From: Microbotryum violaceum
Taxonomy: Eukaryota
DNA: 64,000 nt
Assembly: GCA_001244265.2 (NCBI GenBank)
Contig: CDLV01000005.1
Location: 1,798,001-1,862,000, forward strand
Reading direction: 5' to 3'
Of the stretch, positions 3,227 to 63,958 are shown in pieces. Under the pieces are notes generated by a model. The model searched no databases. It was not told where the DNA came from and saw only the letters and a program-made list of their open reading frames with translations. Each line of letters starts with the position of its first letter. The first letter of the stretch is position 1. Made by a program: the position numbers and the translations under genes.

Positions 3227-3297
3227 CAAGCCGGTCACCGGCGGCAGATCACTGTATAATAACATGTCCGATTCTACAACGGCAGGCGGTTAATCCT

Positions 3298-3740
3298 TTC
3301 GGTAACTTCGGACACATCCTGGGCTTTGAGCAGGAGCGTGGAAGTTTGTTGTAATGCAGTTTCGCTCTGCTCGGTAGTTCGAACGGAGATTCAGTTAGGG
3401 AGTGCGTTGGCCTTGCTCGCTTTTCAGAGTGCAAGTCGGATGTAGCAAACGAATCTTTCGTCGGTCTTGTCGCAGGAGGGTATCCCGTTCAGTAACTGCA
3501 GACACATCCTGAGCTTTGAACGGGTGCGTGGAAGATTGTTCTAATGCAGTTTCGCTCTGCTCGGTGGTTCGAACGCAGATTCAGTTAGAGAAGTGCATGG
3601 GCCTTGCGGGCTTTTCAGAGTGCAAGTCGGATGTAGCAAACGAATATTTCGTCGGTTTCGTCGCAGGAGGGTGTTCCATTCAGTAACTGCAGACACATCC
3701 TGGGCTCTGAACGGGTGCGTGGAAGTTTGTTGTAGTGCAG
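3298..3740. repeat. Diverged tandem repeat, ~190-bp unit, ~2.3 copies
   Basis: Unit starts ttc(g/a)gtaact..gacacatcctg at ~3298, ~3488 and ~3679. Shared internal gcagtttcgctctgctcggt and ttttcagagtgcaagtcggatgtagcaaacgaat. Confidence 0.9.
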
Positions 3741-4138
3741 TCAGCAAGGACGTCGGCGACGGACCGCGCCTGAGCCTAGGAACCCCAGGGGTACACAGCT
3801 GGAGAGGGCACCGGTCGTGTGTACCTCCGGCGGGTACACATCGCCACGCCGGTTGTACAGTGCTTGTTAAGAGTGTCCTAGAATTGATGAAGCATGTCGT
3901 CGCATACCTCTTCCTCATTTCCGGAGGCGCGGGACTCTGTTGTAGTGTATCTACGCCCTGCCCTAAGGTTAAAAATTGAACAAGAATTTCCGCCTTCGGA
4001 GTGCGTTGTACCCTCGGGTGAATCATGGTTGCAATGCAGGATCTCCAATGACATAACATACAAGCTAGATGGCTACACACGCTCACGGAAAACTCGAGAC
4101 GGTCATTGCCTAACTGGTGAATTGACACTCATGGTGCC

Positions 4139-5906: not shown

Positions 5907-6018
5907 CGGCACCGAGCGCGTCGGACCTATATGAAAGCTTGCAGTGTATGCAAGCGACTCGGCGGCACCGAGCGCGTCGGACCTATATGAAAGCTTGCAG
6001 TGTATGCAAGCGACTCGG
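5907..6018. repeat. Exact 56-bp tandem duplication
   Basis: cggcaccgagcgcgtcggacctatatgaaagcttgcagtgtatgcaagcgactcgg occurs twice, at 5907 and 5963. Confidence 0.95.
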
Positions 6019-9316: not shown

Positions 9317-11452
9317 ATGGAACTACCGACTCCACCATTGCAGGCCCACATCCCCGCCTCGGCGTTCCCGGCCGCGACGCCCCCCCAAGCCCAGGGTGCG
9401 GCTGCGATGGGAACCCCACCACTAAGCCCGTTCGAATCCCCGAACGTCTCGAGACCGCCTTCGCCGACGACGGCGGCCTCGTCGACGATGCTCTTTGACC
9501 CCTACTCGCGCTCCAGCTCGATGAAACGGTTGCTCGATCACCACGAACGCTCCCTATCGCGGGGGAAAGACCCGGCTTACAAGCTGCAGCCGCAGAAGCA
9601 GCAACGTTCGCGAGCGCCGTCGTCACTCCTGTCCAAGCTCGTCGCGCTCCTGCCTTTATCGGACACGGCAGCCTCGACCGGGCCGCACACGAGGGGTCGG
9701 CGTCGCAGCATTTCCCACGCCGCGGCGGGCGAAGAGATTGAACTGGGAAATCTTCATGTCGTGGGCGCTCCGATGACCTTGCACTCGACCGCGGCCTCCC
9801 TCCGAAGCGTCAAGACGAGTTCGGCGACGCACTCCGCGGCTCGGCAAGGGTGGTTCACGCGCGACCGCGCACAGCTCTACATCGCCTTTGCCATGATTTT
9901 TATGGTCGGCAGCAACGATTCGGCGACGGGAGCCAAGTGAGTCTCGTGCCCCTCCACCGCGATTTGCGCATCTCTCCCCTTGAAGAGGAAGGACGGCAAA
10001 TAAAACTCAATGCTCTTCTCTATTCGCCACGAATCTCTAGTCTTTCGTCGATGCAGGAGCACTATGGCGTATCATACGATGTGATTTCAATCGTCTTCTT
10101 GGCCAACGTTGCAGGGTTAGTCAAATGGGTCACCCCTCCCTTGATCGGATCCATCAGTATCGCGTGGGAGCTGAGTAAAGAGCCGCCCCCTCTCCCTCTC
10201 CATACAGGTACTTCATATCTTGCGTATCGTCATCATTCCTGTCACACAAGCTGGGCGCACGCTACGCCCTCGTGTGTGCCGCCGTTGTATGGTCCATCGG
10301 CTGCGCCATTCTCATCGTCCGGCCCCCGTTCGGTGTCTTTGTCCTCAGTCTGGCAATGCTCGGCTTTGGCGGTGGATTGTACGACGCGCTGCTGACGACG
10401 ATCATTAGTCACGACGAGAACCCGGGTTAGTCCCCGCCCCCTTTTTACTCAGAATCGAATGTATCACTGACGCCCACTCTGCCCCGGCAGTGCTCATGTC
10501 GTGGATGTACTCGTGCTTCGGCTTTGGCGCGGCCGTGAGCCCGATCGTGATCGGCACCTTTGTCGACAAGGGTATCTCGTGGAACCTATACTACTACATT
10601 CCCACGGGTCTCTCTATCGTTTTTGGGCTGTTGGCGCATATCATATTCCAGGGTTACGAGGCGCCGCTGGATGAAGCCGTCGTGCCCGCTGCCGCTGTCG
10701 CGGCTGGGGCCGAAGACAGTGCCCCCCACCCCGGTCCGAGCGTCGGCGAGATTTTTCATGGTCGAGCAACGCTGTCGGCGACGGCGAGGATGAAGCGGGC
10801 CTTGTCACTCAAGGTGGTCTGGGTTGCTTTCTTGTTGATTACGCTGGCGTTCGGCACAGGCGACACGCTCAGCGCTTGGATGACGGTCTACCTCTCGACG
10901 ATCAGAGCCGCGCCCGAAGCGGCTTCGCGCTACATGCTTTCAGGTCTTTGGGGAGGTGAGCTCAGTTCAGCCTTGACAAGTCCCGGTCTGTATTGAAAAT
11001 CTTTCAAGTGATTGAAAACCTTACCCTTTCCCTTTGCAGGCATCGCCATCGGCCGCGTCGTTGTGCCGCTCATCCTCTCGAAACGGCTCGGGGAGCGCAC
11101 GTTCGCGATCGTCTTGCTCATGCTCGCCATGTCGATGTTGGCCATCGCGTGGGGTGTGCGCAACTACAAAATCGACGCAGTCGCCCTCGCCTTTGTCGGC
11201 GTCACAATCGGTCCCGTTACGCCTCACGTTCTATCCGTCGTGGGTGCTCGCGTGCCGCCGTCGCTCAAGGCGTCGGTCATGTCACTCACGATCGGCGCCG
11301 GTCTCGTTGGCAGTGGTGCGGGTCCGTTGCTATTCGGAGTCATTGCCGGTCGCGGCTGGTTAAACAGTCTACCGGCGGTGTTAATCGTAGCGTGCGGGAC
11401 CGCGTGTGGAAGTTGGATGCTCGTGCCCAAGAACACGAGGAGGGAAGATTAG
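9317..11452 (+). CDS. MFS transporter copy 1 (FucP/Bsc6-like), 5 exons
   Basis: IAFAMIFMVGSNDSATGA|NLSSMQEHYGVSYDVISIVFL, GGGLYDALL, LMSWMYSCFGFGAAVSPIVIG, LSGLWG|GIAIGRVVV; many hydrophobic helices; GT..ctgac..AG introns. Confidence 0.92.
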
Positions 11453-12474
11453 ATACGCCGCCGCCGGTTCTCAAGTTTACTTTCAGAGCTTTTTTTTGCA
11501 ATCATAGACAACCTGTATCATTGTATTTCGTCTGTTGCAATACTTGAAAGGCCTTCCACTGTACAGGGAGAGGAGCTTCGCCTCCAACGAACTTGGCCGA
11601 ACTGCACTGCATGCTTCCAGCCGAGACGGCGCAAGCGCGGCTACCTACCCACTTCCTCGTTCACCCGTTCGGTGCCAGCGGCGGCAGACCGTGGCTCGGA
11701 CTTCCGAGCCTGATCGCCCCGTCGACGAGCTGCCGAAGAGGCCATCCCCGAATTGGAAACGCGGGGGATCGAGCTCGACCGCACTGGGAGAAAAAACCCG
11801 CACGCTTTGTTCGCTAGGCAGGATGAGCCCGGATGAGGCGGCGATGCAGCGCTATCATGAGGGGTTCACCAGCGGCGGTGTGACCCTTCGCCGAACCCCT
11901 TAGATTCGATCCAGTGCGATCCGCTCGATCGATCTCCGGAATTCCACTCTATAAACATAAGCGGGGGGAGAAAACTTCCAATACGTTAACCTGGAACAAT
12001 GCTACGGAATTGGTTTGGTCCTGATCCACTCCGCTGGACGGCACCCCAGGGCAAAAAGGTTTGAATCGTGCGAATTGGGAGGGGTTCAGTGTTTCTCCAT
12101 TTTTCACTCTGGACCTTTTAGGTAGCTCAAGGGAATAGATCTACAAAGTCTCAGATGATTTCCGGTGGTGGCAACATGGATAGGTGCATGCGCGCTTTGG
12201 CTACCGAGGGGTCGACTGAGAGGAGGTTGCCTCGCCGCATGAGCGAGGGCGTCCCGCCCGTGACGCCGCCGATCGACCTTGATTTGCTGACACGTCTAGA
12301 ATCGCCCCTCTCCTCTGGACTCCTTTTATTCATCCCAATTGCTCTCTTTCTTTCTCTTCCTCTTCCCACACCCTCGTCTGATCGCAGCTTGAAGATCTCC
12401 CCTCACCTACCCACAGCTGCCTCGCTCGAACTTTCACCTCCAATCGCACCTCTCCGGAACCCGATTCGGTCTCG

Positions 12475-14362
12475 ATGATCGAACCTTCCCAAGCCTCTTC
12501 CCAGCTTTCCAGCACTGCGGGTGCTGATGCTATTACTGATCTGCACTATGCTACGAGCTCGGAAGCCTACGCCCAAGAAAGTGACAGGAAGGATGCAGGC
12601 GAGCAAAAGCTGGGTGTTCCAGCCTCGTCGTCGCCTGGACACACGGGGGATGACTCGAGCAAAGTCTCTACCCAAAGCCACGCTACTAAGATTCTCAGGA
12701 CTAGTCTCTTCTCTCGAGACCTGCGGCGCACTTGCGTTGCCTTTGCGATCGTGTTCATGGTCGGGTTCCACGTCGGCGCGACGGGGCTAAAGTGAGCATC
12801 GCCTTTACCCCTGTTCCGGTGCGCGACCTTGCGCTTCGCTCCGTCGCTGATCTCTCAGCCTCGGCGGACTTTGTCGGCTGGGACGCAGTCTTTCCCTCAT
12901 TCGAGAACACTACAATTTGGCCTACGAGCAAGTCTCAATTATGTTTGGACCCATGATTGTGGGGCAAGTTGTTTGTTTGCAGTTGTTGACAACTCCTATC
13001 ACTTGGGCTGCACTGAACCCCTGGTTTCTGGCCACGCTAGATTTCTCTTTGCATGCGGTGCTTGCCCTTACCTCATCCAATATGTTGGTCTTCAATGGGC
13101 ACTCGTCGTCTCATGCACGACGTGGTGTGTCGCGTGCCTCGTTCTCGTCGTGCAACCGCCTTTCCCTGTGCTCGTCCTCGCGTTTGCAACGCTCGCTGCT
13201 GGGGCGGGATTGTACGAAGCCCTACTCACCACCGTCATCAGTCACAACAAGGACCCTGGTACGTACTACAGAAGGCTTGGTGAACAGATTTTCTGGCGAC
13301 CTCGATCTGAATGACCCGTGTCGAATGCAGTCATCATGTCATGGCTCTACGCCAACTTTGCGGTCGGCGCCGCCTGTGCCCCCATCGTCGTCGGAAGTTT
13401 CGTGGCCCACGAGATCGGATGGAACAAGTTCTACATCGTACTTCTCAGCTTATCGCTCGGACTCGCGGTGTTTGCGCATCTCGTTTTTTGGGGATACGTC
13501 TCTCCGTCAGAGACCGTCGTCAAGGAGGAAGCGGACTTAGCCGCGATGACCGATACAGAGTCTCAGCGCCGTTCCGAAGCCGGGGGCACGCTGGACCCTG
13601 CTTCGGTTCTCAAGGTTGTGAACGATAATGCCAAGGGTGGTCACCTTCCTACTTCGACGACCGCACGCCTGAGCCGTTCACTCCGACTCAAGATCGTCTG
13701 GCTCGGCCTCGCGCTGCTGTGCCTCGCGTACGCGACGACGGACTTGCTCGCGGCGTGGATGTCGACTTATCTCCTGGCCGTCAAGCATGCGTCCAAGCCG
13801 GCGTCCAAGTACTTGCTCTCGGGTTACTGGGCGGGTCAGTGCCCCGTCACTCCCGTCCCTGTCTCTTCATTCTTTCCTCTCTCATGTCTGACATATCCTC
13901 GCGCTCACATGACTGCGATCATGCACAGGAGTCGCCTGCGGTAGGCTCCTGCTTCCTTGGGCGCTCTACCGACGTCTCGGGGAGCGCCTATTTGCGAGCG
14001 TACTACTCTTGATCGCTGCTTCGATGTTGATCATCATGTGGGTGGTCAAGTCATACGAGCTCGACGCCGTCGCCCTCGCCGTTTGCGGCTTCGTCATCGG
14101 TCCCATCAGCCCGCACGGTCTGTCGACGATCAGCTCTTGGGTCCCCGCTGCTCTGCGCCCTTCGGTCGTCGCCTTCACGTTAGCGTGCGCCGTGACGTGC
14201 GGTGGGATCGCGCCCCTCTTGTGCGGCTTTGTCGCCGGTAAGGGGTGGCTCTCAAGTCTACCTAGCTGCTTAATCGTCATGTGCGTGCTCGCGGCAGGGG
14301 CATGGCTCTTGGTGCCCAAGACGCACGAGGAGGTCTTGATCTCGGAGAAGACTGCAGTCTAG
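12475..14362 (+). CDS. MFS transporter copy 2 (FucP/Bsc6-like), 5 exons
   Basis: VAFAIVFMVGFHVGATGL, GAGLYEALL, IMSWLYANFAVGAACAPIVVG, LSGYWAG; intron positions match copy 1. Confidence 0.9.
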
Positions 14363-14445
14363 TTGCAACGGGCGCTCCAGGTCTTTTCGAGTCCCTATTT
14401 TCTCGTCGGTTGATAGCCCTCCTAATTGGAAAACAAAGGAAAGTT

Positions 14446-14517
14446 TGGCTGAACTGAGAATTGAACTCAGGTCCACTCTATTAATCAGAGTTGCTCTGAC
14501 CGCTGAGCTACTCAACC
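14446..14517 (-). tRNA. tRNA-like cloverleaf, mirror copy of 14697-14768; loop GATTAAT
   Basis: Exact reverse complement of the plus-strand cloverleaf in the right arm. Confidence 0.6.
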
Positions 14518-14696
14518 AGTAGGAATAGATGAATATGACGGTGCACCCAAGTCACACCGGCGGTGGTTCTACCACACATTGGGAGCAGTAGAAGTCAATG
14601 TGACCGTGCACCAGTCCGCCCGCCATGGCTCCCAATGTGTGGTAGAACCACCGCCGGTGTGACTTGGGTGCACCGTCATATTCATCTATTCCTACT

Positions 14697-14768
14697 GGTT
14701 GAGTAGCTCAGCGGTCAGAGCAACTCTGATTAATAGAGTGGACCTGAGTTCAATTCTCAGTTCAGCCA
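14697..14768 (+). tRNA. 72-nt tRNA-like cloverleaf, central loop triplet TTA, non-canonical G32/A33; pseudo-tRNA or Pol III promoter module
   Basis: GGTTGAG TA GCTC AGCGGTCA GAGC A ACTCT GATTAAT AGAGT GGAC CTGAG TTCAATT CTCAG TTCAGCC A. All four stems pair, A-box TAGCTCAGCGG and B-box AGTTCAATTC are present, and a T-rich tract follows. Confidence 0.65.
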
Positions 14769-15331
14769 AACTTTCCTTTGTTTTCCAATTCTCCTTTTAT
14801 ATGTAAATGCTCATTCTCGTATCTTTGTTAGAGCTGAAATATTGGACGACCATCTGCTTCAAGAAATCTAATTGAATTCATCCCTTGTCAAGCTTTTTCA
14901 CGGGCACCGTATCCGATTTGCTTTGTGGGACAATTGAAAGTGACAGAGCGAAGCCGACGGCCCAGTCAAATTGCCGAGATGTGCCTCGGATCTCGCTCCG
15001 ATGCAGCGGCCGGATCGGCAAGATGAACAAGCCGGCAAGGTGGGAGCAGTCTCACGGAGAGGAGAGGGTGCCGATGCCGCCAACCCGGGACCCGGCGAAC
15101 CGTGCAATCAGCCGCGGGTGGGCGCTTGCACATCAGTGAGATCGCACCACTGGCTTCGGCCGCGCTTGTCCGAAATGCGAAGCGGAAAAACGATTGATAG
15201 CTGGGGTATTTAGTGACAATTCTGATCGATCCGAGCAGGAAAATATTGATAGCTTCTATACCCTTTCCACAGCCCGCGGCTCTCTTTTGGGTTCCTGCCT
15301 CCCACCACTTCATCGCAACCCGCTGCCGAAA

Positions 15332-17201
15332 ATGCCGACGGGTCGATTTTCCAAAATGCGCCACGCCGTGATGTCATCCCCATCCTGTGCTTTGTCACGG
15401 GTTCCTACCACCTCTTTGGATTTCGTTTCCGAAACCGCCAATGACGTTGAACTCATTGAGGTGATGACCGATCGCGCACGTCCCGCTCCTGAAACGCGCG
15501 CGAGCACGATTTCAACCAAAGGATCCGAGCACTGTGAGCACCCGTCCACTGGATTGGGTGCGGCCAGAGCCAGCAGAATCTGGCACATGGCTCGCCGATG
15601 TGTTGCGTTTGCGATGGTGTTCATGGTCGGCATCCATATCTCGGCGACTGGGCTCAAGTGGGTGTTCCCGGCTCGAAAGCAGTGGTGCCCCGAGCTCCTA
15701 ACGATTTGGCGCCTGATCGCTGACCCCCGCCTCCGCGCGCGATTCTGGCTCCTCTTTGGCGGACGGACACTCTTACGCGCAGTATCTCGCTCATGCAAAC
15801 CCATTACAATCTTTCGTACACCCAAATCTCGACGGTCTTTCCTCCGATGATTGCAGCGTAAGCACTCGCACAAGTTTTGTACCGAGCCGTGCCTACATTT
15901 TCCGTCGAGTTGCGCGCTCATGGATGGTAACCACTACACCCTTCGTACATTCCTTCAGCCACGCGATCGCCTGTGGAAGCTGCTCTTACCTCTTGCATGG
16001 TATTGGTATGCGATGGGCGCTAACGCTCGCTTGCGTCGTGTGGTCGATCGGCTGCGCCATGCTTATCGCCGAACCGCCCTTTGCGTGGTGTGTGGTCGGC
16101 CTCGGGAGTCTCGGCGTCGGTGCGGGCACCTACAACAGCGTGCTGACGGCATTCACAAGTCACGAAGAGGACGCAGGTTGGTTTATACATCGGCTTTAGG
16201 GGGTCCAGGGCGCTGACCTATCTTCGAATCGTGGCAGTGCTCATGGGGTGGCTGTATGCAAGTTTTGCCTTCGGCGGTGCGATCGCCCCTCTCATTGTCG
16301 GGGGTTTCGTCGCCCACGGCATCGGGTGGAACAAGTTTTACATCCTCCTTCTGGCCTTTTCAAACCTTCTGGGTGGTATTTCCCTCGTCTTAGTGGGTGA
16401 ATGGGAAGTATCTCTGGACCAGAAGGCCGGTTCGGCACCTAGTACTACTAGACGACCCGAGGCCGAGAACGAGAGCGAGCATCTTCGACCTGCTCCCTCG
16501 GCGACGGCGAGGCTCTGCGAGGCCCTGCACCTCAAGATCGTTTGGATGGGTCTCTTCTTGATCGGTATCACCTACGGAAGTGCCGATGCGCTCGCGGCTT
16601 GGACTTCGAGCTACTTCCTGGACGTCAAGCATGCGCCCAAGTCGGCTTCCAAGTACCTCATGTCGGGTCTGTGGGGAGGTCAGTGATGACATCGCATTTG
16701 CCCGCGGCATGTTTATGATGCATGATGCCTAGTAACTGGCTTTGGCTCACCCCGAGACAAGATCACCTCGCGCCCACAGGGATGGCGGTGGGCCGACTCA
16801 CCCTGCCCTGGCTCTTCCGAGGTCGCGTTGGGGAGCGAACTGCCGCAATTGGCACCTTGACGGTCGCCATCGTAATGTTGACGGTCATATGGTTGGTCGA
16901 GTCGTTCAAGGTCGCGGCCGTCGCGCTCGCCTTTGCCGGCTTCTCCGCCGGACCCATGACCCCGCATGTGCTGTCGACGGTAACGTCCCGAGTGCCCGCT
17001 GCTCTCAAGGCTTCGGTCGTGTCCCTCATTCTCGGTACGGCCGTACTGAGCGGAGGTGGCGGCCCGCTTCTCTTTGGTATCATCGTCGAAAGAGGGTGGA
17101 TCTCGAGCCTTCCTCCCTGCTTGATCGTCGCCAGCGCCTTGGCCGCATGTTTCTGGGCCTTGCTTCCTCCGAGGTGCACCGCCACCCCTTCAGCTCAGTA
17201 G
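15332..17201 (+). CDS. MFS transporter copy 3 (FucP/Bsc6-like); start codon uncertain
   Basis: VAFAMVFMVGIHISATGL|NISLMQTHYNLSYTQISTVF, GAGTYNSVL, LMGWLYASFAFGGAIAPLIVG, MSGLWG|GMAVGRL. Confidence 0.88.
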
Positions 17202-17821
17202 ATTTTGATTTCTTCCATTTCCTTCATTCTCTTGTAGATCTTTCGAGTTCCAATTTCGAGTGGGAATTTTTAATAGTGACGTCGGTGGTTTTGATAGCGA
17301 TAAACATATTGCTTGATTGCGACGATGTGCGCGACCCGGTCCCTGGCTCCTTCAAGTGTTCATCGTCAACCGTATCGTCCGCTCGAGCCTGTTGCGATTG
17401 ATTGCCCGAGTGCGAGATGAGCCTAGCAGGCAAATTGTTGAACACGTCCGCTGGGGGCGTACTAGCGACACCATCACCGGTCGATCCTGTAAGATATTCC
17501 ATTCGGCACGAAAGATCGTGCTGAAAACCAAGCGTCTCTGGAGGCGCTGAAGAGCCAAAACTTGAAGCTGCGAACGGACGATCGACGGACGCTCTCTTCG
17601 CCGGCGCTCGCACGCACCGGCGGACTGCACCGCGCCGCACTCATCCGAGGCCAGCGATGGCACTCCGAGCAACTCATCTCGTATCGTTTCCTATTGTCTC
17701 TTTATTCTCCAGATACGAATCTCCACTCGCTAACTTTTTTCTTTCGGAAAGTTCGGATCACCTCCACGCTCCGACTAGCACATCGCACCGCGCTTCGTTT
17801 CTCACCTTTGGGGTTGCGACA

Positions 17822-19547
17822 ATGCAAAGCATTCGCAACAAGTTCTCCAATAGCACAACAGGGGTCTCCCCAGGTTTTAGTAGCGGAGTGATGAAGAAAC
17901 GAGGACAAGTATGCGTGTCTTTTGCGATGATGTTCATGCTAGGCTTCAACATCGCTGCGACCGGTGCCAAGTGAGTCCTGGTAGGCTCGGTTCGGTTCGA
18001 GCCGAGCTGACGCGCGCGCCATGTATTTTCCGAGCCAATAGTGTTCCCTCCATCAGCGCGAGTTTCCACGTGGCGTACAGTGTCATCTCACTATTTTTCT
18101 TGTCCTACGTGACTGGGTAAGTCTGGAGCACTCTCATGAGCGAAAAGAAACGCACCTCTGACCACAATCACTCTCGCGCGGCCTCCCATGCAGATTTATC
18201 ACCACTTGCATCGCGTCCTCTTACGTCGCCCGCGAATTTGGGGTCCGCGCCACCCTGGCTGGTGCCAACATCCTGTGGATATTCGGATGCCTCATCTTCC
18301 TGCTTCAAACCTCGTTCGGCGCCTGTGTGCTCGCCTTAACTTGCCTCGGTCTCGGAAGTGGCTTGTTCGAGCCGACGATCGTGACCGTGGTTACGCAGCA
18401 AAGCACTCCAGGTCGGTCTCTGCATTCGAGCCTAGTTCATGTGATTTGAGAATAAGGAGTTAATCCAACAGTACGGGTCTTATGGGGGACTTGCAGTGGT
18501 TCTGTTTTTCCTGTACAGCAGCTTCGCCATCGGTGCCGGAATTTCCCCGCTCATCATCGGAGGCTTTGCCGAGCGCTCGATCCCCTGGACAAATTTTTAT
18601 TACTTTCCCGTCACGATCTACCTAGTGCTTGCAGGGCTCTGCCACATCGTCTTTCAAGGCTACGAGGAGACGTTGAGTCACGACCAGGCACCGTCGGCGC
18701 ACGGAATGGCGACCTTTTCTTCCACATACCCCGGCGATTCCACGACCAAGTTCGGGCGGCGTGCCTCGTTCGGATCGTCGGTCATGTCTGCGCCGAGCCG
18801 GTTCGCGGGGCTCGAGATAGACCGCAACTGCGTTGCAGGGGGACACAAATCAGATGTCTCGGCAATGGACCGTGTCGGTCGAGTGCTACGCCTTCGCGTT
18901 ACGTGGATCGGCTTCTTTCTCGTCAACCTGTCGCTCGCGACGGGCGAGCTCCTCGGCGGGTGGGGCACGACCTACTTTCTCGTTTTCAAGGAGGCTCCTC
19001 CAGGCGATTCCAGATTCATCCAAAGCGGATGGTGGTTTGGTGAGTGACTCGCCCAACCTTGGGGAGGTAGAGTACCGAGGCTGACATTGAGTCAGCACCC
19101 AACCTTTTCTGTGGCACAGGCATGGCTTTGGGTCGCTTAGTCCTACCTATTCTTTCACCTCGAGTTTTGGGGGAGCGCCTCTTCGCGATCGTCCTGCTCG
19201 CCTTTGCCTCGTGCATGATCACTGTCATCGGCGCCGTGCATTCGTACAAGAGCGATGCCGCTGCTCTCGCCTTCTACGGCTTTGCGTACGGCCCCATCGT
19301 TCCTCACATCCTCTCAATGGTCAGCTCTCGGGTGTCCACGGACTTGACGGGCACCGTGATCTCCCTCACTCTCGGTGTGGGGGTGCTGGGTGGCGCGGCC
19401 GCCCCGATCCTCTTTGGTGCTATCGCGGCCGATCATGGGATGTTGAGCATGCTCCCCACTTGCTTGATTGCGGGCACGTTGCTCGGCATTTTCGGGTGGC
19501 TCTTGGTTCCGGATCACGACGACGAGCTTAAATCGACCTTTCACTAG
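17822..19547 (+). CDS. MFS transporter copy 4 (FucP/Bsc6-like)
   Basis: VSFAMMFMLGFNIAATGA|NVPSISASFHVAYSVISLFFL, GSGLFEPTIV, LYSSFAIGAGISPLIIG, QSGWWF|GMALGRL. Confidence 0.9.
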
Positions 19548-20300
19548 ACTCGCTTCGGTTTCTGCATAAAATATTTGTTGTAATAGAGCCTCATAGAATA
19601 CATTACCGGTGCCAAACGCCGACCGCTTCTTCAAAAATGTGTGTTAAGGCACCCTGGTTGCCGAAAGTACAATAAAAGTGAAAGCATCTCCACACGGGAT
19701 GCATGCGCCGAATCCTCTTTCGACAAAATGCACGATTGGGTGAGTTCGATCCACAGGAGATTACGCCTCTGACTCCATGCCGTTATTTTGTAAAGCCTTT
19801 TTAGGCCATGGAATGACCTTAGACTGCCTCAGGGACATGAGCGGCCAGTGGCCAATCCAGCGCCGGGCGACGCTGACGCGGCGATCCCTTACATTTGTCA
19901 ACGGCAGGGGCAGTCGATCAGTCGGTCGTCGGGACGGACGTGACAGGCAGCTATCAATCGTCCTAGCACGTGGGAACGCCCGACGGACCACGATCGACCG
20001 CTACTCTCAGAGGGCGACACATTCCCTGGGCGGTGTCACCGACCGTTACCACGGCTCAGTGTTCGAGCTAGTGGTTCGCTGCCAGCGCGCCGTCCGTCCG
20101 AGTCGACCCCTGAACTTGTCGGGGACTCGGGTCTGGAGACAGGTCAATCTTCGATCACCCATCGTATTGTGGATGTACTTCGATCACCCGTCTACATTCC
20201 TTTTCTTTCTCTCTTTCCCTTGTCCATACGTTCGTCGGAGTAACTTCCTGCTCTATCCTCTATCCACCGGTCTTGCAGCTCTACCACGGTTACCATCGCC

Positions 20301-22073
20301 ATGCAAACAATTCGCGAAAAACTCGCCAACGGTCTCGAGCCCATTCGGCCGAGCCGACGCCGTTCGAACATGGAAATCGCGCGCATTTGCCTCTCCTACG
20401 GTATGAATTTCATGTTTGGTATCAGCGCCGCAGCAATCGGATCCAAGTCAGTCGGTGCGCATGCTTACGATGTTAAGCAAAAGTACCAAAACTCAGCACG
20501 CACCCTATTGCCTCTTTCGCTACAGCATCCCATCCATCAGCGCGCAGTACCACGTTTCGTTCGCGCTCCTGTCAACCGTCTTTTTAACCAACCGAGTCGG
20601 GTCAGTCCGATCGAAACCCCTCTCCTCTCTACCTACTCACACCGAAAGGACGACGCACGATTAATCGTTCGCTTGAAACGTACCCGCAATGCAGATTTTT
20701 CCTGGCCTGCGTCCTATCGTCGTACCTAATGCACAACTTTAGCGTGCGCGCGACGCTCATGTGTGGCAATGCGTTCTGGGTCATGAGCTGCCTCATCCTG
20801 CTCCTCCAACCTTCGTTTGCTCTCGTCGTGCTCGCGTTCACGGGCATGGGCGCTGGCACTGGCCTCACCGAACCGGCGATCGTCACCGTCATCACTCGCG
20901 AACAGAGTCCCGGTGAGTTTCAAGAGACCTTCCGTGCGAAAGCCAAAGAACCACTCGTTTACCCCTGACCACCACCCTGCTCCAATGATCACACCCAGTC
21001 CTCACCTCGTGCCTCTATAGCTCTTTCGCCTTTGGTGCCATTTTTTCCCCCCTCATCAACGGTTCCTTTGCCGATCGCAATATCCTCTGGACCAACTTTT
21101 TCTACATACCCCTCGGGCTCTGTGTGCTCCTTTCGATCGCAAACGTTTTCATCTTCCGCACCTACGAAGCCGATCTCTTGAAAGCCGAGCAAGAGGAACT
21201 GCGCCGCCGCACCGTCGTCAATTTTGCGATTCGGTACCCCACGCGTCCAGAAACCGAGGGACAAGATCGACGCAAGTCATTGTTCCTCTCTACCTCGGTG
21301 GTAAAGAACACCCATCCCGAAGCCCGAGAAGACGGCTTGACAAGTGAAGCAACACATTCGTCCTCCACATCGTCCAAGCCCAATGCGACGGCGCTGTTGC
21401 TGCGCGTGTTGCGCCACAAGGTGACCTGGATCGGGTTTGCGCTCATCGTCTTGACCATGTCCGAAGGGGAGACGTTGGGAGGGTGGTCGACGACGTACTT
21501 TCTCCAGGTCAAGCATGCGCCGGCGGGGATGTCAAGGTACATCTCTTCGGGAAAATGGACAGGTGAGTCGTCCTGGTTCGGTATCTCAGACTTTTTCCGA
21601 CCCAAGCTAATCTCAGCCTGTTTCTGACCACAGGCAACGCGATCGGCCGCATCCTCTTGCCAATTATCTTCCTTCGCCTCCTCGGTGAAAAGACCTTCGC
21701 GATCGTGATCCTCCTGATCGCCTGCGGCATGCAACTCATTGTCGCGCTCCTCCCTTCTTGGAAAGCCAGTGCTATTGCTTCGGCCTTTTTCGGTTTTGTT
21801 ATTGGACCCATCACGCCTCACGTCCTCTCGATGGTCGGCTCCCGCGTTCCGAGTGATTTGATGGCTCCGGCCATGTCGTTGATGCTGGCCAATGGAGTCG
21901 TGGGTGGTGCATTCGGACCCATGTTGTTTGGTATTGTGGGCGCGTCCAAAGGGCATTTGAACGCTTTGCCGTTCGTGGCGATTGGGTTGTTGGGCCTTAG
22001 TGCTCTAGGGTGGTTGCTTGTCCCTAGAAAGAAGGAGGAAGGCGTCATGGCAGTCGGGGGGGACTTTCAGTAG
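20301..22073 (+). CDS. MFS transporter copy 5 (FucP/Bsc6-like)
   Basis: LSYGMNFMFGISAAAIGS|IPSISAQYHVSFALLSTVFL, GTGLTEPAIV, LYSSFAFGAIFSPLING, SSGKWT|GNAIGRIL. Confidence 0.9.
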
Positions 22074-29741: not shown

Positions 29742-30439
29742 GCTCGCCCACGTTCACACGACTTTGCTGGTAGATGGTTGGGTCCGGAGGGAGGATGAGC
29801 AAGCCTGGCCCGGAGTGCGTGAGTCACCGTGGCAGGGAGAAAGGCGGGCTCGCGCGGTAGGCGTTTGTGGACAATGGCGACCCATTAGGTCAAGCTCAGG
29901 AGCTAATTCACTCGGTTTCTAATGTGAGCGCTGTGAGCCCGCAATCGCCGATTTGTCATGTCTCACTTTTTGGGTCGCGCGCCCCCGCGCGTCAGTAGTA
30001 ACTATTACCAAAAGTCATTCGGCATGTGTTCCATACCGTCGATACGGTGGGTGGGCTGGGGGTAAACTGACAAACCCGTACGGGAGGCTTGTAAGGTTCT
30101 TGCGTTACGGAAGGTAGTAGCGAGGACGGTCGTAGATCCAAGTCGGACAATTTGCGCAAAACAAACATAGGCGACAAGGCTTAGTCCCCTTGGAGCCCTC
30201 GGGGTCTACCGCCCGAGATAGGGACGAAACAAAGAAGCCAACAGCTGACCGGAGGACTTCGAGCTTTGAGGGGGAAGGGACAGCGGCGCACGGGCCTCAG
30301 CCTGGCTTAAGCGGGAAGCCCTTCAAGTTGTCCCCCATCTTTGAGTCTCTTTCTCTCTCTTGGTAATTAGCTTCTAGCTGAAAACCCAGTATAGAAGTTT
30401 AACAAGTACATCCACGGCTCCGAGTTCGATCTACGACTG

Positions 30440-31508
<1,069 letters not shown>

Positions 31509-34500
31509 TGACTTCCGACGGCTCAACAGCCAGCACTCGAGACTCAGCCAAGGAGGGCCATCGGGCGTTGTCGGGGTGACGAGTAGCTGGGGCTTGGCTG
31601 CGGCCTGTTAGTCTTTGGGGACCTCTATCCCTGGCTTCGACCCCTATCTTGGTCCCTCGGGTGTGTCCCCCCCTCCTCCCCCTCCTTTCCCCTTGTTTTA
31701 GTATTTTCCTTTCTCGGTGTTCCCGTTTGTGACTTTCTGTATATTCTCCCCCCTTCTTTCTCTAGGCGCTCTTGCCTGGTTTTCGAGTATCTTCGCTCCC
31801 GCTCTTGGGACGTGAAGCGGCAGCAGTACTCACCGCCCGTTGGAGTCCGCGTTAGGTGCTCGGCGGGCTTTGATCTGCGCAGCGCTCTTTGCGCGCAGGG
31901 GTTTGATTTTCACCCAGCTGCTTGTCGTCGTTGCTTTATTACCTCTTTTAGCCCTTTTTGTAGCGATCCTAGCCAACCCGAAGGATCGTAATTTATGAGC
32001 CCAGTTAAACAAAAAAAAAGGACTGCGGCGGCGGCCACTCGTCCCAACACTCGAAAGACTCGGAGCTGAGGGCGCAGATCGGTCCCACTGGGACCTGCCA
32101 TCCCGGCCAGCGCGTCATCACTGCTCGCTACCAACGGCCTTTGCATGGAAAAAGCCGGTTCTGGCACGAGGCTGTGCTTAGTGGACCGCATGTCAAGATT
32201 TTATGGACTTGGGTTGATCATCATCATCGCCATCGCCATTGATCGGCATCTTACCCCGGCCGCCCGCGCTTCTTCTATGCCGGGCCTCCTCGGTATCTAA
32301 ACAGTTTATCGAATCTTCTATTGTTCGACTGTAATCATCATTCAGAATGTGCTCTGACGGATACGAGCGCAAAAAAACGGTTAGCACAGACTCGGATCGC
32401 CTCCGACTCTAGCCATTGGAACTTCAATCATGCTGAGAAGTTCGTGTAGTATCTGTGGAAGGCATTGCTTGTGTTGCGGAGGGTATTTCTTGTAATTCAC
32501 ATCTTCAAAGACTGCTCTTTTCTACTGCGCTTTTCATTGCTCCCAGCACCGCTGTCCATGAACAGGTCCAAATCAGGCCGCTGCGAGCGGGAGCGCCCCC
32601 CCTGTTTCTGAAGCATAGACGTTCCATAGCTACGTGTACCAGGTATAGGTGCATTAGCTACATCACAATATACCGAACCAATTCGGTCTGAAGAGATGCA
32701 ACAAGAAAGCACCATGACCTTGTACACCATGCTTTCGTCGTCCTATGTTTCCCCTCTTTTCTTTTTCTTTCGTCCCACGCGGGCAGCGACTCGGTGACGG
32801 CCCCAGAGGCCCAGAGTCCGAGCACCACTGCCAGCGGACCAACTGTCATCGTGTACACTACATTGCAGGGGCGCTCTCAACTCCAGCATACGGAGATTGG
32901 GGGATGGGAACTCGGGCGCGCTCGGACCTCTTTAGTTTCTGACTTAGATTACCCGAGGCAGCGACTAGCGCGGCTCTCCCTCTCTTTTCCCTTAACGTTC
33001 CCTATCCTCTTCTACTCGGCATCTTCGTTTGCTCACTGCGCTGCTCCTCATAGGTTATGAGCCCCAACCGACCTACCAGCTCAGAGCACGCAAGCTTCGA
33101 CGAGCTTCCACCGCCTTCCACCGCGAGCGTTCACCCACCCGGCCAACCCCCGCTGGCCCGCGCCGTCATGTCGCCGTCTTCTGCTGCACCCACTGCAGAG
33201 GAAATCAAGGCTCTTATCCAACAAGCTCTCGACGTTCATGGTCGTGACACCCGCTCTTCCTCGTCCTCACCCCCTGACACCACCACCGAGACCGCCTCCG
33301 TCCCGCGTGTCCCCGCTGCCACGTCGATCACGTTCGAGGCGGTCAACCGACTGAAGGACGAAGCAACCTACCCGCGGTGGCATCGCGCACTAAAAGCGTT
33401 AGTGCCCACACCCATCTTCTCGTATCTACAGACGGGAAACTTCCCCGCTGAATGGTCCATCGCAGCTCAGGACCAGTGGAAGGACTACGTACGAAGCGTC
33501 CTCTTCAACTCGCTGCACCCATCCATTCAAGACGCCTACCAAGAAGACGACACCCCCTCTCAAGTCTACATCACTCTGAAGGAGCGCTACTCGCCTCGGG
33601 ACGCTCAGGCGTACGCCAAACTCATCCAGCGATTCTGGTCGATGCCCCAGATTCCGCTTTCCTCCAAGGACGATTTTGACAAGCACCTCAACCACGATCT
33701 CGATCTCGCCAGAGAGATTCGTCAAGGGAACCTCGACATTGAACAAGTGCTTGTCGCCGCTCGCCTCTTCAGTACCAACTTCAACGACGGTCTCGATCCT
33801 TGGCGCGAGACATTCCTTCAACTGCACCAGGGAAAGGACAGGCTTCCTTCCCTCGAGGAGACGATGAAATTGATGCGTGTTGCAGCGCACAACATTATCG
33901 ACAAACGCCCTTCCGCGTATGTCTCGAACTCGGACAAGTCGGGGACCCCACCCGGCCCGTGCCCCGCTTGCAAGACTGGCCCCCTGCACTGGCTCCGTGA
34001 GTGCACCGATGAGGATGCGAAGAAGCGATTCTTCTCCAGGCCCCGGCCCAATCGCTCCAAGCAGAACGCGAACGCCAAGCCGCCCGCTCAAGCTCGCCTC
34101 GCTGTTACCTCGGACGACCCCGGCGAGATCTCGGAGACGGCCCCCAGCGTCTCCTTCGCGCCTACTTCTTTCCTCTCGGTCACGTCGGACTCGCCTAGCC
34201 TCCTCTTCGACTCTGCCGCCATTCACCACATGCTCAACGACTCAACTGCCTTCGTCGAGCTGCACAACACTCCTCGTGTGCAGATTGGCGGCGTAGGGGG
34301 GGGGGGCGCTTTCTTCGCACGGCACGGGTGTCATCGAGCTCGTCGCTTCAACAGGCAATCGCATTCGCCTGTCCAACGTCTTCTTCGTTCCGGGCTGTCC
34401 CGCGAATCTCATTTCCGTATTCGCGCTCATCAACGACGGCATCACGGCTTCATTCACCGAAGACGGACGAGTCTCGCTGGACAGGGGGGGGTAAGCGCGT

Positions 34501-37114
34501 CTGCACGGGTTCGGCCAAATCCGACCGACTCTTCCACTTGGATGCCCATCTATGTACGCACACCGCTCTCATCGCCGCTCGTACCCCCAAGGTCTCACTG
34601 CTGACCCTTCACCGCCGCCTTGGTCACTGCTCTCTTCCCACCCTCAGGAAGCTGGCCAAAAGCGATCAGGTGAAGGGTATTGAGTGGACTTATAGTGACG
34701 ATGATTGCAATGATTTCAAATGTGATGCATGCATGGCTTCGCACAAACTACCTTTCCCTATGTCCGAGTCTCACGCTGCACTTCCCCTCGGGCTAGATCA
34801 CTCGGACCTACTCATGTTCCCTGAGCCTTCCGTGAGCTGCCGACGCTACCTGATCGCCTTCATCGACGACTTCTCGCGCAAAGCTTGGGCCTTCCCACTC
34901 CTTCGCAAAAGCGACGCACTGGCTGCCTTTCAGCGCTGGAAGGCCGAAGTCGAGAACGCCTCCGGGGCCACAATCAAAACACTGCGTTCCGACAACGGTG
35001 GCGAGTACACTGCTTTCAACAAGTTTTGCGCCGAGCAAGGGATTCGTCGCGACAAGTCGGTGCCGTACACGCCCGAACAGAACGGGCGCGCCGAGCGACT
35101 TAATCGATCGATCGTAGAGGGCGTCTTGGCTCTGCTCCACGACTCCGGTCTCCCGGCCCACCTCTGGGAAGAAGCGACGCAGTACTATCTCGACTGCAAG
35201 AACCTCACGCCACACGCAGGGATCGACGGCGGTGTACCAGGTGCGATCTGGCACGGCATTCCCCAAGACCTCTCACGACTGCGCACGTTCGGCTGCCGCG
35301 CCTGGGCCACCGTCCCACAGCATGAACGCACCAAACTAGAACCAAAGGGGATCCCACTGATCTTTGTGGGTTATGACCAACATGCCAAAGCGTATCGATT
35401 ATACGATCCTGACACCCAGCGTACTCGCATCAGTCGCAACGTCACGTTCGTGGAGACCGAGTTCCCTGCCGCCGCGCGACAAGTCTGCGAGCCCGAACCG
35501 CCCTCACTCGCCCCTACGACCGTGCTGCACCCCGTCCTGGCGCCAGCTTCGGTACCAGCCGTTCCTGTCACACCTCCAACTTCTACGCCGCCCACAACGC
35601 CTCACCCGAAGCCCCACTCGACATGCTCCCTTCTCGCGACGCCGACCCGGCCCACTGGCACCAAGCGATGCGATCTCCACACGCCGCGGAGTGGCAAACC
35701 GAAGCCATCGACGAGTTTACGTCGCTGCTGAACCAGTACAAGGTCTACGTCATTCTCGACCAAGCCGCCCTGCCCGACGGTGCCAAGCTGCTACGCTCCC
35801 ACTTCGTCTTTCGTACCAAGCGTGATCAGTTCGGCAACGTCAAATCGCGGAAGGTTCGTCTCGTCGCTGACGGCAGCACTCAACGCCCGGGCCTCGATTT
35901 TCAGGAGCGTTATTCCCCCGTTGTTCGCTTTACATCGATCCGAGCCCTCGTCGCGATCGCCGTCTTGCGCGGCTACAAGATCAAACAAGCTGACGTCAAC
36001 AAGGCCTATCTGCACAGCAAGCTCGACCAGCCTCTCTACATGCGACCACCGCAAGGCATGGACTTGCCGGGTAAGATTCTCAAGCTCGAACGATCCATCT
36101 ACGGGCTCAAGCAGGCTGGACGCATCTGGAACGACGAGATCGACTCGACCCTCCGTTCTGTCGGCTACAAGCCCACGGTCTCGGATTTCTGCGTCTACAC
36201 GAAGCGACACGGCAACGATTGGCACTACATCGCGCTCTATGTCGACGACTTGCTCCTCATTGGCCCCTCGGACGACGAGATCGAACGCGTTCTGTCCACA
36301 CTCGAGGACATGTACGGAATCAAGCGACTTGGCGACGCGGAATACGCTTTTGGCATTCAACTCAAACGTAGCGATGACGGCTCCATTACCCTCTCTCAGG
36401 AGCGCTACCTACAGGACGTGCTCGAACTTTTTGACCTCGCTCTTGCCAAGCCCGCCAGCACACCGATGCAGAAGAATCTCCTCCTCGAGCTCGATCAATC
36501 GACACCTTCTGACCAGGAGCGAACTCGCTATCTTCAGGCAATCGGCTCCCTGATGTACGCCGCGCTCGGCACTCGTCCCGATCTTGCCTACGCTGTCAGC
36601 TATCTCGCACGATTTGCCAAGGAGCCCGGACCGACGCACTGGACCGCGATCAAACACGTTCTGCGCTACATTCGAGGAACAGTCTCGTACGGTCTTCGTT
36701 ACACGCCTACTCCCGGTCCGCTCTACGGCTACTCCGACTCGAATTGGGGTGCATGCGTTCGGACGTCCAAGTCGACGATGGGCTATGCATATTTTCTGGC
36801 TGGTGCAACGATCTCCTGGTGCTCGAAACGGTCGTCCCGCGTCGCTGATTCTACCACCGACGCTGAGTACATTGCCCTCTCCCAGTCTTCCAAAGAGGCT
36901 ATTCACCTTCAGCAGCTCTTGGAGGAACTCGGCATTCTGTCACGAATCAGCAGCGCCACCTCGCAGCTTACTCAGCGCTGGGAACTTTCTAGGAGCTTCC
37001 AGTTATCTCTACGATCTTGCGCCTCGATCACTTCCTTTGGCTTCAACTTGCTTCCATGAGTTTCTGTCGTTTTCCCTGGGCTTTCCTGCGACTATAAATA
37101 GGGCTTCTGTGTAG

Positions 37115-40308
<3,194 letters not shown>

Positions 40309-40320
40309 ACCCGAGGGTGA

Positions 40321-40512
<192 letters not shown>

Positions 40513-42559
40513 TAGAAATCGCTCTTGTCTTCCTTCTGCAATCTTGATCTCATAGTCAACTCCCCCAGTAACCTCCAGCTCCCTCGGCCTCTGTTCTAGT
40601 ACTCTTACAAGAACAACTACATCAATCCCGCATCTCGTCCCGTCATCCTCGCTATCGCCTGCTGCCTACGGCTTAGCAACCTCAACCCTGACACATTCCG
40701 AACTCGGAACCCACCTTGATCTACGGCGACAATCAAGGCGCGAATTCATTGACACGCAACCCGACATCGTTTTCAGGCACTCGTCACGTTCGCATCCGGG
40801 AGCACTTTGTGCGGGAGATGGTCAAAAAGGGTGAGATCAAGGCTGAATACATTGCCACAGCCGACATGGTCTCCGACATCCTCACCAAGGCCTTGACCCC
40901 AAGCTCTTTGTACGGCACCGCGAAAGTCTAGGCCTCCGAATGCCTGGAGCCTGACAGCGAGGGGGGAGTGTCATCGTGTACACTACATTGCAGGGGCGCT
41001 CTCAACTCCAGCATACGGAGATTGGGGGATGGGAACTCGGGCGCGCTCGGACCTCTTTAGATTCTGACTTAGATTACCCGAGGCAGCGACTAGCGCGGCT
41101 CTCCCTCTCTTTTCCCTTAACGTTCCCTATCCTCTTCTACTCAGCATCTTCGTTTGCTCACTGCGCTGCTCCTCATACCAACGACGGCCGTTCCACCCAA
41201 TCGACGACGATTGGGCTAGGGCAAGGACAAACGGGCGAGTGAGAAGTAGAGCAGTCACGGGTCGGAAAGATGCGGGCTCGTTGAACCCTTAACTGAATCT
41301 CGAAACGTGACCACAAAGAATCACGGATCGGCGCGTTTGCATGGCCCGAAAGAGGGAGGTCCAAGCCGATGGAGATGAAAGAAGAAGCAAGAGAAGAGGT
41401 GTGGGAAGTCTTCACTCACATGGGGGTAAGACACGCGCGCACTTGAGTGGGCCTTCCATTCTTCTCCACCTCTGCCGAGGGCAGCGCGGCACGGACCTGC
41501 AGCGAAATCGCGGACAGGGGCCCACGCACCCCACATCGAGGTTAGCCGTTAGCCACCCACCTCTAAATTACCCTATACTTGGTCGATCCAGCTCGTTTAA
41601 GTCTCAAGACGCAAGATCAGCTGTGAAGATCAGCCAAATTTGAGATCGCCGCGATTGATGAAGTGGTTGTTGCTCCAGCATCTTTATTCGAGCCGGGGCG
41701 ACCTCGCTTCCACCTCGATCGAAATCCGATCCGGAGCTGGGTCGCTGAGCGGCTTCACACGAGAGCTCCGACGCGGCAAATCGAGGCCAGCGAAAAAGGA
41801 GAGCAACTCCCGTGTACTTCAAGACAATGTGCCAACATCAAGGAGGTGTTTTCACTCGGAGGGTGTTATTTGATATGTGTCTGTGCCTGTGGTATCTGCG
41901 TAACTCCTCCTCTCTTCGTCCTTCGTGATAAAACATTCGAGTTCTTATCTTAGTGCAAGTTATACTATGGCAACCCCCCTCTTTTCACTAAGGATCAGGC
42001 GAAGATGTTTTTTACGATCTCTGTCTTTTGTAACAGAGCCCATAAGGCTTTCGAGGCATACATTGATGTACCCGACTCGACGACAAACGCCCCGCGTTTC
42101 TCGAACAGGCTCAGCAATACATCGGCGGCTCCGATCGCAACCCGACCATCACGAACAGGCTGCTTGCCCCCCCGGCCCAAGGCGCCGCGGCTGCCTCTGC
42201 GAGTATAATTTTCTCGCTCTCTGCTTTATGGAACGTTCCCGATTTTCAGGCCCAGTAATATCACGCCGCCCTCAAGACCGAAGCTCGCACTGGCATGCTC
42301 AGCCTCTATCATGACGATCTCACCTGGGTGGCCGACCTCTCCGCCAGAGCTATCAGGACTATTTCCTCCACCAAAGTCCTCAGGAAGCCGAGGCCACCCC
42401 CAAGCCTTACTCACAACACTCAGCAACATGCTCACTTGACCGTCTACCACTGCACAACCATCACGACCCAAGGCCTCACCCCCCCGTGTGCGTAGACGCC
42501 ACGACGCTCCTCTCACTGTAATACATCCCGTAGGAGTGCACACCGGAGCGACAACGACA

Positions 42560-49386: not shown

Positions 49387-49528
49387 AACTATCTTTACTA
49401 TCTTCTTCGGCTCTCGTGCTTACGTACATCGTGCCTCGGGCCTCAGGTTAGTCTTGCAATGCCGGAACTATCTTTACTATCTTCTTCGGCTCTCGTGCTT
49501 ACGTACATCGTGCCTCGGGCCTCAGGTT
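49387..49528. repeat. 63-bp exact direct repeat separated by 16 bp, possibly within an LTR relic
   Basis: aactatctttactatcttc...gggcctcaggtt at 49387-49449 and 49466-49528. Confidence 0.9.

Positions 49529-59287: not shown

Positions 59288-63958
<4,671 letters not shown>

Follow-up and report, generated by a model that had tools for sequence, protein, structure and literature searches.

The described systems closest to the structure reported here are the Helenus elements (TRIMp3), miniature non-autonomous LTR retrotransposons that carry a tRNA-derived sequence with A and B boxes in their LTRs (Kojima 2024, PMC10886601). According to that report, fungal Helenus elements have 5-bp duplications, are linked to Copia and are found in rusts and a few mushrooms, and none was found in Microbotryum. 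Their tRNA-like parts are described as unlikely to be functional, and as often predicted to be suppressor tRNAs (PMC10886601). The same text describes Cassandra, a plant TRIM with a 5S rRNA-derived Pol III promoter in its LTRs. The present family would share with Cassandra the presence of a small-RNA-gene promoter in the terminal repeats of a non-autonomous retroelement, but Cassandra differs in using 5S rather than tRNA sequence, in its plant host and in the direct orientation of its repeats. tRNA-derived SINEs are likewise dispersed repeats with a tRNA-like Pol III module; these, however, consist of a 5' tRNA head, a body and a tail, with variable duplications, whereas the unit described below faces outward near the 3' end and is followed by 22 nt. 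Foldback elements of Drosophila have arms of tandem subrepeats and a 9-bp duplication; here the duplication is 5 bp, and no tandem subrepeats could be identified in the arms by a repeat search of 14300–14900.

The locus lies in a 64,000-nucleotide stretch of Microbotryum violaceum DNA, the whole of which is referred to as the window. It is a palindrome of 367 bp (14424–14790), with two arms of 163 nt each (14424–14586 and 14628–14790) that are 100% complementary, separated by a spacer of 41 nt (14587–14627), exactly as an earlier note on this DNA had described the perfect arms and the spacer. The pentamer CTCCT is present as a direct repeat on both flanks (14419–14423 and 14791–14795). Folded as one RNA strand, the palindrome reaches −335.5 kcal/mol (z = −44.7), and none of 100 shuffled sequences was equally good. 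Rfam matches to mir-607, mir-63 and mir-140 all scored below the respective gathering scores, and merely reflect the hairpin. A scan with promoter and terminator models, which are bacterial whereas the host is a fungus, gave nothing. Within the 64-kb window, neither a second copy of the arm (blastn) nor another element end (16-nt end motif, at most three mismatches) could be found, and metagenome scans gave no matches to an exact 24-mer or to a degenerate pattern of 38 columns. Public Logan contigs of four coded runs (X4, X8, X11 and X17) were aligned to positions 13800–15400; the insertion site is covered by X4, X8 and X11, and the contigs of X17 do not reach the junctions. The features of the locus are the following.

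14419..14423, no strand: target-site duplication CTCCT, left copy (sequence; single CTCCT at the empty site of X11)
14424..14586, minus: left arm, in which the 163 nt at the end of the family unit (tail, tRNA-like unit and inner segment) recur inverted (100% complementary to 14628–14790; X4 flank contig 13800–14452 crosses the left junction)
14446..14517, minus: left tRNA-like unit, facing outward (RF00005, 49.9 bits; ARAGORN)
14587..14627, plus: spacer, first 41 nt of the family unit of about 204 nt (local alignment; contig starts in X11 and X17)
14587..14790, plus: family unit of about 204 nt, putatively an LTR, with imperfect hairpin, tRNA-like unit and 22-nt tail (contig boundaries; loose-end rows listed, five at 14586/14587 and nine at the outer ends; fold)
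14628..14790, plus: right arm (flank contigs of X4 and X8 begin at 14761/14762 and continue into the right flank)
14697..14768, plus: right tRNA-like unit, facing outward, anticodon loop GATTAAT (RF00005, 49.9 bits; ARAGORN; sequence)
14704..14714, plus: A-box-like TAGCTCAGCGG, mirrored at 14500–14510 on the minus strand (read from the sequence against the general consensus)
14746..14756, plus: B-box-like GAGTTCAATTC, mirrored at 14458–14468 on the minus strand (read in the same way)
14781..14784, plus: T4 run, possibly a weak Pol III terminator, 13 nt past the 3' end of the tRNA-like unit, mirrored at 14430–14433
14791..14795, no strand: target-site duplication CTCCT, right copy (sequence and contigs)

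A contig of 21,577 nt from X11, at single-copy depth, joins position 14418 to 14791, skipping 372 bases with five shared letters. X11 therefore carries the empty site with a single CTCCT, and the element is exactly 14424–14790 (367 bp) plus a 5-bp target duplication. The flanking direct repeat proposed earlier is thus real, and of the two lengths that had been considered the 5-bp CTCCT is correct; a 4-bp AATT duplication is ruled out, as AATT is part of the inserted DNA. The search for an empty site in related strains, which the earlier note had advised, gave a clean one in X11, whose flanks differ from the window at three listed positions (14003, 14864 and 14991) and which is therefore a close relative. 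In X4, flank contigs cross both junctions (13800–14452 and 14761–15400), and in X8 a flank contig crosses the right one (14762–15400); the insertion is present in these two of the three runs that cover the site, and absent from X11. Perfect palindromes can come from long-read or cloning chimeras, and short contigs are unable to span arms of 163 nt. An assembly artefact is nevertheless hardly credible, since flank contigs enter the outward-facing tail end at the left (X4) as well as at the right (X4 and X8), since X4 and X8 are separate runs from different studies with differently labelled organisms, and since the length skipped in X11 is exactly 367 + 5.

Relative to single-copy flanks, contigs bearing the spacer are 13 times as deep in X4 (745/56.8), 11 times in X8 (69.3/6.06) and 27 times in X11 (619/22.9), which corresponds to about 13, 11 and 27 family copies, respectively. 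The empty site, the 5-bp duplication and this 11- to 27-fold depth establish that the palindrome is mobile and multicopy. Most of the high-depth contigs match the window without mismatch, and the family has therefore expanded recently, in agreement with the earlier view of a young element, the arms of which are identical. The polymorphic insertion together with the approximately 2-fold difference in copy number among these very close relatives suggests that the family is active now or was so very recently. The palindrome is a real, recent and still polymorphic insertion from a multicopy mobile family.

The same contigs give no support to the foldback as the architecture of the family, which the earlier note had assumed. 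In a k-mer contig set, the centre should have half the depth of any sequence that both arms of every copy contain. In the present sets of about 23 Mb each, and with an argument that is based on simplified contig graphs, the depth in X11 was 588 for 14616–14755 (mostly arm) versus 619 for 14587–14645, and in X8 it was 50.2 for 14629–14725 versus 69.3 for 14592–14649. In X11 and X17 the high-depth contigs have 14587 as their exact first position, and the border of spacer and arm is crossed by unbroken contigs. Because the arms are not doubled in depth and contigs start at 14587, the common unit is one of about 204 nt, consisting of the spacer and the right arm (14587–14790), and a palindrome is atypical for this family. 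The 23 loose-end rows listed, of 41 in all, are distributed as follows: nine are at the exact outer ends (14422–14424 and 14790–14792) with differing neighbours, two are four bases inside the outer ends, five are at 14586/14587, three belong to one shared truncated copy at 14524, and four represent diverged subfamilies at 14528, 14685 and 14751. In X4 the depth was 1236.8 for 14455–14518 versus 745 for the unit-specific part, and the tRNA-like part is common to at least one further subfamily with a different upstream segment. The spacer itself is homologous to part of the inner arm, with a local alignment score of 23 versus 22 for the best of 1000 shuffles. It pairs imperfectly with 14651–14696, forming a hairpin immediately 5' of the tRNA-like unit in the fold of 14587–14790.

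Each arm contains one tRNA-like unit of 72 nt, and both face outward. ARAGORN reports them as two 'tRNA-Stop (tta)' genes, at 14445–14518 (minus strand) and 14696–14769 (plus strand), and Rfam family RF00005 matches 14446–14517 (minus) and 14697–14768 (plus) with 49.9 bits, compared to a gathering score of 29. The complete cloverleaves that had been read from the letters are thereby confirmed, including the covariance-type score that had been advised for 14697–14768. No other tRNA match was found by Rfam in the 64-kb window (E ≤ 0.5). The tRNA-like unit begins 110 nt into the unit of about 204 nt and is followed by the 22-nt tail AACTTTCCTTTGTTTTCCAATT, with no A-rich or simple-repeat tail. 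In X8, three contigs are short of one T in the TTT run at 14777–14779, a tail length variant among family copies. The cloverleaf is regular, with the conserved positions of the D- and T-loops; the exception is the anticodon loop, which reads GATTAAT (G32 A33 T34 T35 A36 A37 T38), with TTA at positions 34–36. Decoding tRNAs have a pyrimidine at position 32 and U33. That the palindrome maintains two functional ochre-suppressor tRNA genes, which would read UAA, is in line with the full cloverleaf of 49.9 bits, the conserved D- and T-loop positions, the TTA triplet and the downstream T run. We consider this very improbable, in view of G32 and A33 in place of pyrimidine-32 and U33, which the earlier note had rightly held against a suppressor function, and because tens of working suppressor copies would be harmful, the unit sits within a mobile repeat, and the long ORFs in the window are read normally with the standard code. 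Also, the predicted tRNA-Sup-CTA genes of rust fungi are all from Helenus (PMC10886601). Most likely, the tRNA-like units are promoter or TFIIIC-binding modules of a mobile family and not decoding tRNAs; they may be active with Pol III.

Neighbouring sequences of other family copies give a clue to the nature of the unit. Following the terminal CCAATT, one copy in X8 continues with TGGTAGCG (one of the 11 tail-end rows listed, with a flank of 27 letters). This 8-mer has three occurrences in the window, all three of which extend to the 11-mer TGGTAGCGAGC, which we take to be complementary to the 3' end of a tRNA with U72, A73 and CCA, as in eukaryotic initiator tRNA.

1749 (minus), 32133 (minus) and 49836 (plus): 11-mer TGGTAGCGAGC, in otherwise unrelated sequence

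These three sites show no further similarity to one another, and look like orphan primer-binding sites of decayed LTR elements. At the other end of the unit, the purine runs AAGAAAAGGGGA and GAAGGGGA are found just before 14586/7 in two of the five rows listed, where a polypurine tract preceding a 3' LTR would lie, although one of these two flanks is the consensus of two records with an agreement of 0.58. The primer-binding-site and polypurine flanks, together with the 5-bp duplication, argue for the LTR of a retroelement (Helenus-like) rather than for a TIR DNA transposon, and the unit of about 204 nt is most likely the LTR of a small retrotransposon of the Helenus/TRIMp3 kind. Against this counts that the primer-binding site is seen in one 27-letter flank and the polypurine runs in two flanks. 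LTRs generally have the termini 5'-TG...CA-3', a rule from which the unit departs, as it begins with (C)AGTAG and ends with CCAATT; one copia-like element of the window (TG...TA) departs from it too. The final ATT is kept in nine of the 11 tail-end junction rows listed, and was therefore not trimmed as a retroviral integrase would do. At the locus itself the copies are inverted and the internal region is absent, and a direct-LTR pair is not among the contig data. In the region 31.4–32.1 kb of the window, a primer-binding-site motif and a purine run occur on one strand, but terminal repeats could not be found.

The earlier note had classified the palindrome as a MITE-like DNA element with TIRs that embed the Pol III units. 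As an ordinary MITE, it would have arisen by internal deletion from a cut-and-paste DNA transposon with long TIRs (163 to about 204 bp), each holding a tRNA-like unit, and a 5-bp-duplicating transposase (hAT5- or Transib-like) would move it in trans. We judge this reading, the main rival, unlikely. The inverted ends and the 5-bp duplication do stand: the palindrome resembles MITEs and foldback elements in being short and non-coding, with long perfect inverted ends, a duplication of fixed length, a clean empty site and polymorphism next to a gene. The identical outer ends beside many different flanks (nine loose-end rows listed) are likewise as expected, and inverted repeats with the spacer included would account for the equal depths of spacer and arm; in fact, the depth data fit equally well a DNA transposon with inverted repeats spanning the whole 204-nt unit. 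Groups with suitable duplications exist, namely hAT5 and the CMCT clade with 2–5 bp (PMC12730594). The genome paper of M. lychnidis-dioicae lists 39 MITE copies without family names, which average about 400 bp and together cover 0.06% of 26.1 Mb, and no SINEs (PMC4469406). Against this reading, the arms are not more abundant than the centre in the four contig sets and have no tandem subrepeats. A TIR element also predicts neither of the neighbours seen at other copies, namely a primer-binding motif for initiator tRNA directly behind the tail end (one copy) and polypurine runs directly ahead of the other end (two copies). In addition, neither a transposase nor a second element end is present in the 64-kb window, and the sequences before 14587 vary from run to run, where the reading would call for a single conserved internal sequence. 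To our knowledge, the termini AATTGG...CCAATT match no superfamily consensus, and we know of no transposase partner of the palindrome family.

Our best reading, at about even odds, is that the palindrome consists of two inverted copies of one terminal repeat, joined as a dimer, from an LTR retrotransposon that is Helenus-like and bears a tRNA sequence. The family of the unit would be copied by the reverse transcriptase and integrase of autonomous elements of the Ty1/copia type. The inserted DNA would be a back-to-back dimer, consisting of one complete unit and an inverted copy of its last 163 nt, such that on either side the terminus which in a normal element adjoins the primer-binding site lies outermost, and the unpaired centre consists of the first 41 nt of the unit. 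Provided that the unit is an LTR, the element read on its minus strand would begin with the whole unit in reverse complement and continue with a copy of the first 163 nt of that sequence, a shape that could arise when synthesis folds back, or switches template, on minus-strand cDNA. Insertion of this blunt, two-ended molecule by a copia-type integrase could then leave the usual 5-bp duplication. Integrases of this type are tolerant of end sequence.

Self-primed minus-strand strong-stop DNA of retroviruses has been documented in vitro (PMC6088434). It resembles the proposed intermediate in being a fold-back cDNA, a hairpin or palindrome of which both ends are primer-proximal, but it differs in being known as an in-vitro dead end, for which that source reports no integration into a genome. 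The junction found here is also unlike the one predicted by the unit's own hairpin: simple self-priming at this hairpin (14587–14696) predicts perfect arms of about 94 nt (tail and tRNA) with imperfect inner stems, and was rejected. No microhomology could be identified at the observed dimer junction. Another retroposed or rearranged unit could be envisaged, either SINE-like with a twin-priming 5' inversion or formed by two cDNA ends joined at a staggered break. Twin priming or two-donor integration yields an inverted partial copy beside a full copy, and the duplication implies a staggered target cut. Such an origin is improbable, since the tRNA-like part is at the 3' side and is not a SINE head, and an A-rich or simple-repeat tail is missing; moreover, the two parts overlap fully over 163 nt, whereas products of twin priming hold adjacent segments, and random end-joining would rarely end the right-hand part exactly at the unit boundary. 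Only tentatively do we suggest that the locus is the record of a fold-back cDNA integrated by a copia-type integrase, or else an undescribed foldback DNA transposon with outward-facing Pol III ends.

If the 204-nt unit is indeed an LTR, the likeness to Helenus lies in a tRNA-like A/B-box unit within a short terminal repeat, and further in the 5-bp duplication and the occurrence in Pucciniomycotina. The differences are that Helenus has direct LTRs, which enclose a short internal region with a primer-binding site and a polypurine tract, whereas the copies are inverted here and one is 41 nt shorter, that the unit ends are not TG...CA, and that the internal region is absent at the palindrome locus. 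The earlier remark that the architecture was not recognised from a named family holds only in part, as tRNA-like units in 5-bp-duplicating terminal repeats have been published for fungi as Helenus (PMC10886601), in which the repeats are direct rather than inverted. In the literature, we found neither a MITE or foldback element that bears a tRNA nor a TRIM from Microbotryum, although supplementary lists may contain the family. The palindrome fits best as a Helenus-like repeat from a genus new as its host, inserted in the unusual form of an inverted dimer.

If the unit is Helenus-like, it would extend the class of retroelements bearing Pol III promoters to Microbotryum, in which PMC10886601 found none, and it would explain tRNA-Stop or suppressor-type calls in gene predictions of Microbotryum genomes. 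The family, active now or until very recently, occurs in a group that serves as a model for sex-chromosome-like degeneration and transposon accumulation. Should the fold-back cDNA route be true, the palindrome would preserve, as is rarely seen in vivo, a side reaction of reverse transcription hitherto described from in-vitro work, and would imply that integrases of the copia type can accept, in vivo, a palindromic molecule both ends of which are primer-proximal.

The palindrome is located 61 nt past the stop codon of a transporter paralog (frame ending at 14362) and upstream of the next paralog. Read-through from the transporter would give a perfect double-stranded RNA of 163 bp, and at this locus the insertion could thus have two side effects, namely two Pol III/TFIIIC sites and an RNA duplex of 163 bp on read-through. 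RNA-interference genes have been reported in Microbotryum (PMC4469406). The palindrome offers a natural test case for hairpin-triggered silencing and for effects of TFIIIC or Pol III on neighbouring genes. The window contains intron-split genes. At about 9800–21000 on the plus strand, a head-to-tail row of at least four to five intron-split MFS transporter paralogs could be identified, with the palindrome between the second and the third; eight of ten exon-sized frames examined match PF07690, each below the whole-protein cut-off. A SPRY protein encoded in the window has matches in Microbotryomycetes at about 50% identity, and the copia polyprotein described below likewise places the host among the anther-smut fungi of the genus Microbotryum. 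The GC content of the window (about 55%) and the size of the contig sets fit the 55.4% GC and 26.1 Mb published for M. lychnidis-dioicae (PMC4469406).

LTR retrotransposons abound in the right half of the window. An intact Ty1/copia element (59288–63958, minus strand) has LTRs of 279 nt that are 100% identical, a GGAAG duplication and a gag-pol polyprotein of 1374 residues, which is 99% identical to many proteins of Microbotryum silenes-dioicae and more distant from those of M. saponariae and M. intermedium. Its primer-binding site, GGTTATGAG, presumably matches the anticodon loop of initiator tRNA. This element gives the impression of recent activity, and could serve small non-autonomous elements as a helper. 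A second copia-like element (32844–41177) has LTRs of 209 nt with 99% identity, ends TG...TA and a CCAAC duplication, and contains a nested Ty3-like element (36950–40693) with LTRs of about 342 nt, a CATTC duplication and a Ty3 capsid frame at 37331–38506. Each of these three LTR retrotransposons is flanked by a 5-bp duplication (GGAAG, CCAAC and CATTC), equal in length to that of the palindrome. Long frames with an RVT_1 reverse transcriptase domain, of 748 and 459 residues, represent another retroelement at 52957–56315 on the minus strand. Other repeats in the window include three copies of a unit of about 190 nt (3282–3782), an exact 56-nt doublet (5907–6018) and an exact 63-nt pair, 79 nt apart (49387–49528). 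Finally, a 31-nt inverted repeat with 90% complementarity (30117–30147 and 30419–30449), its halves 271 nt apart, lies in a region of lower GC and may be a small TIR element.
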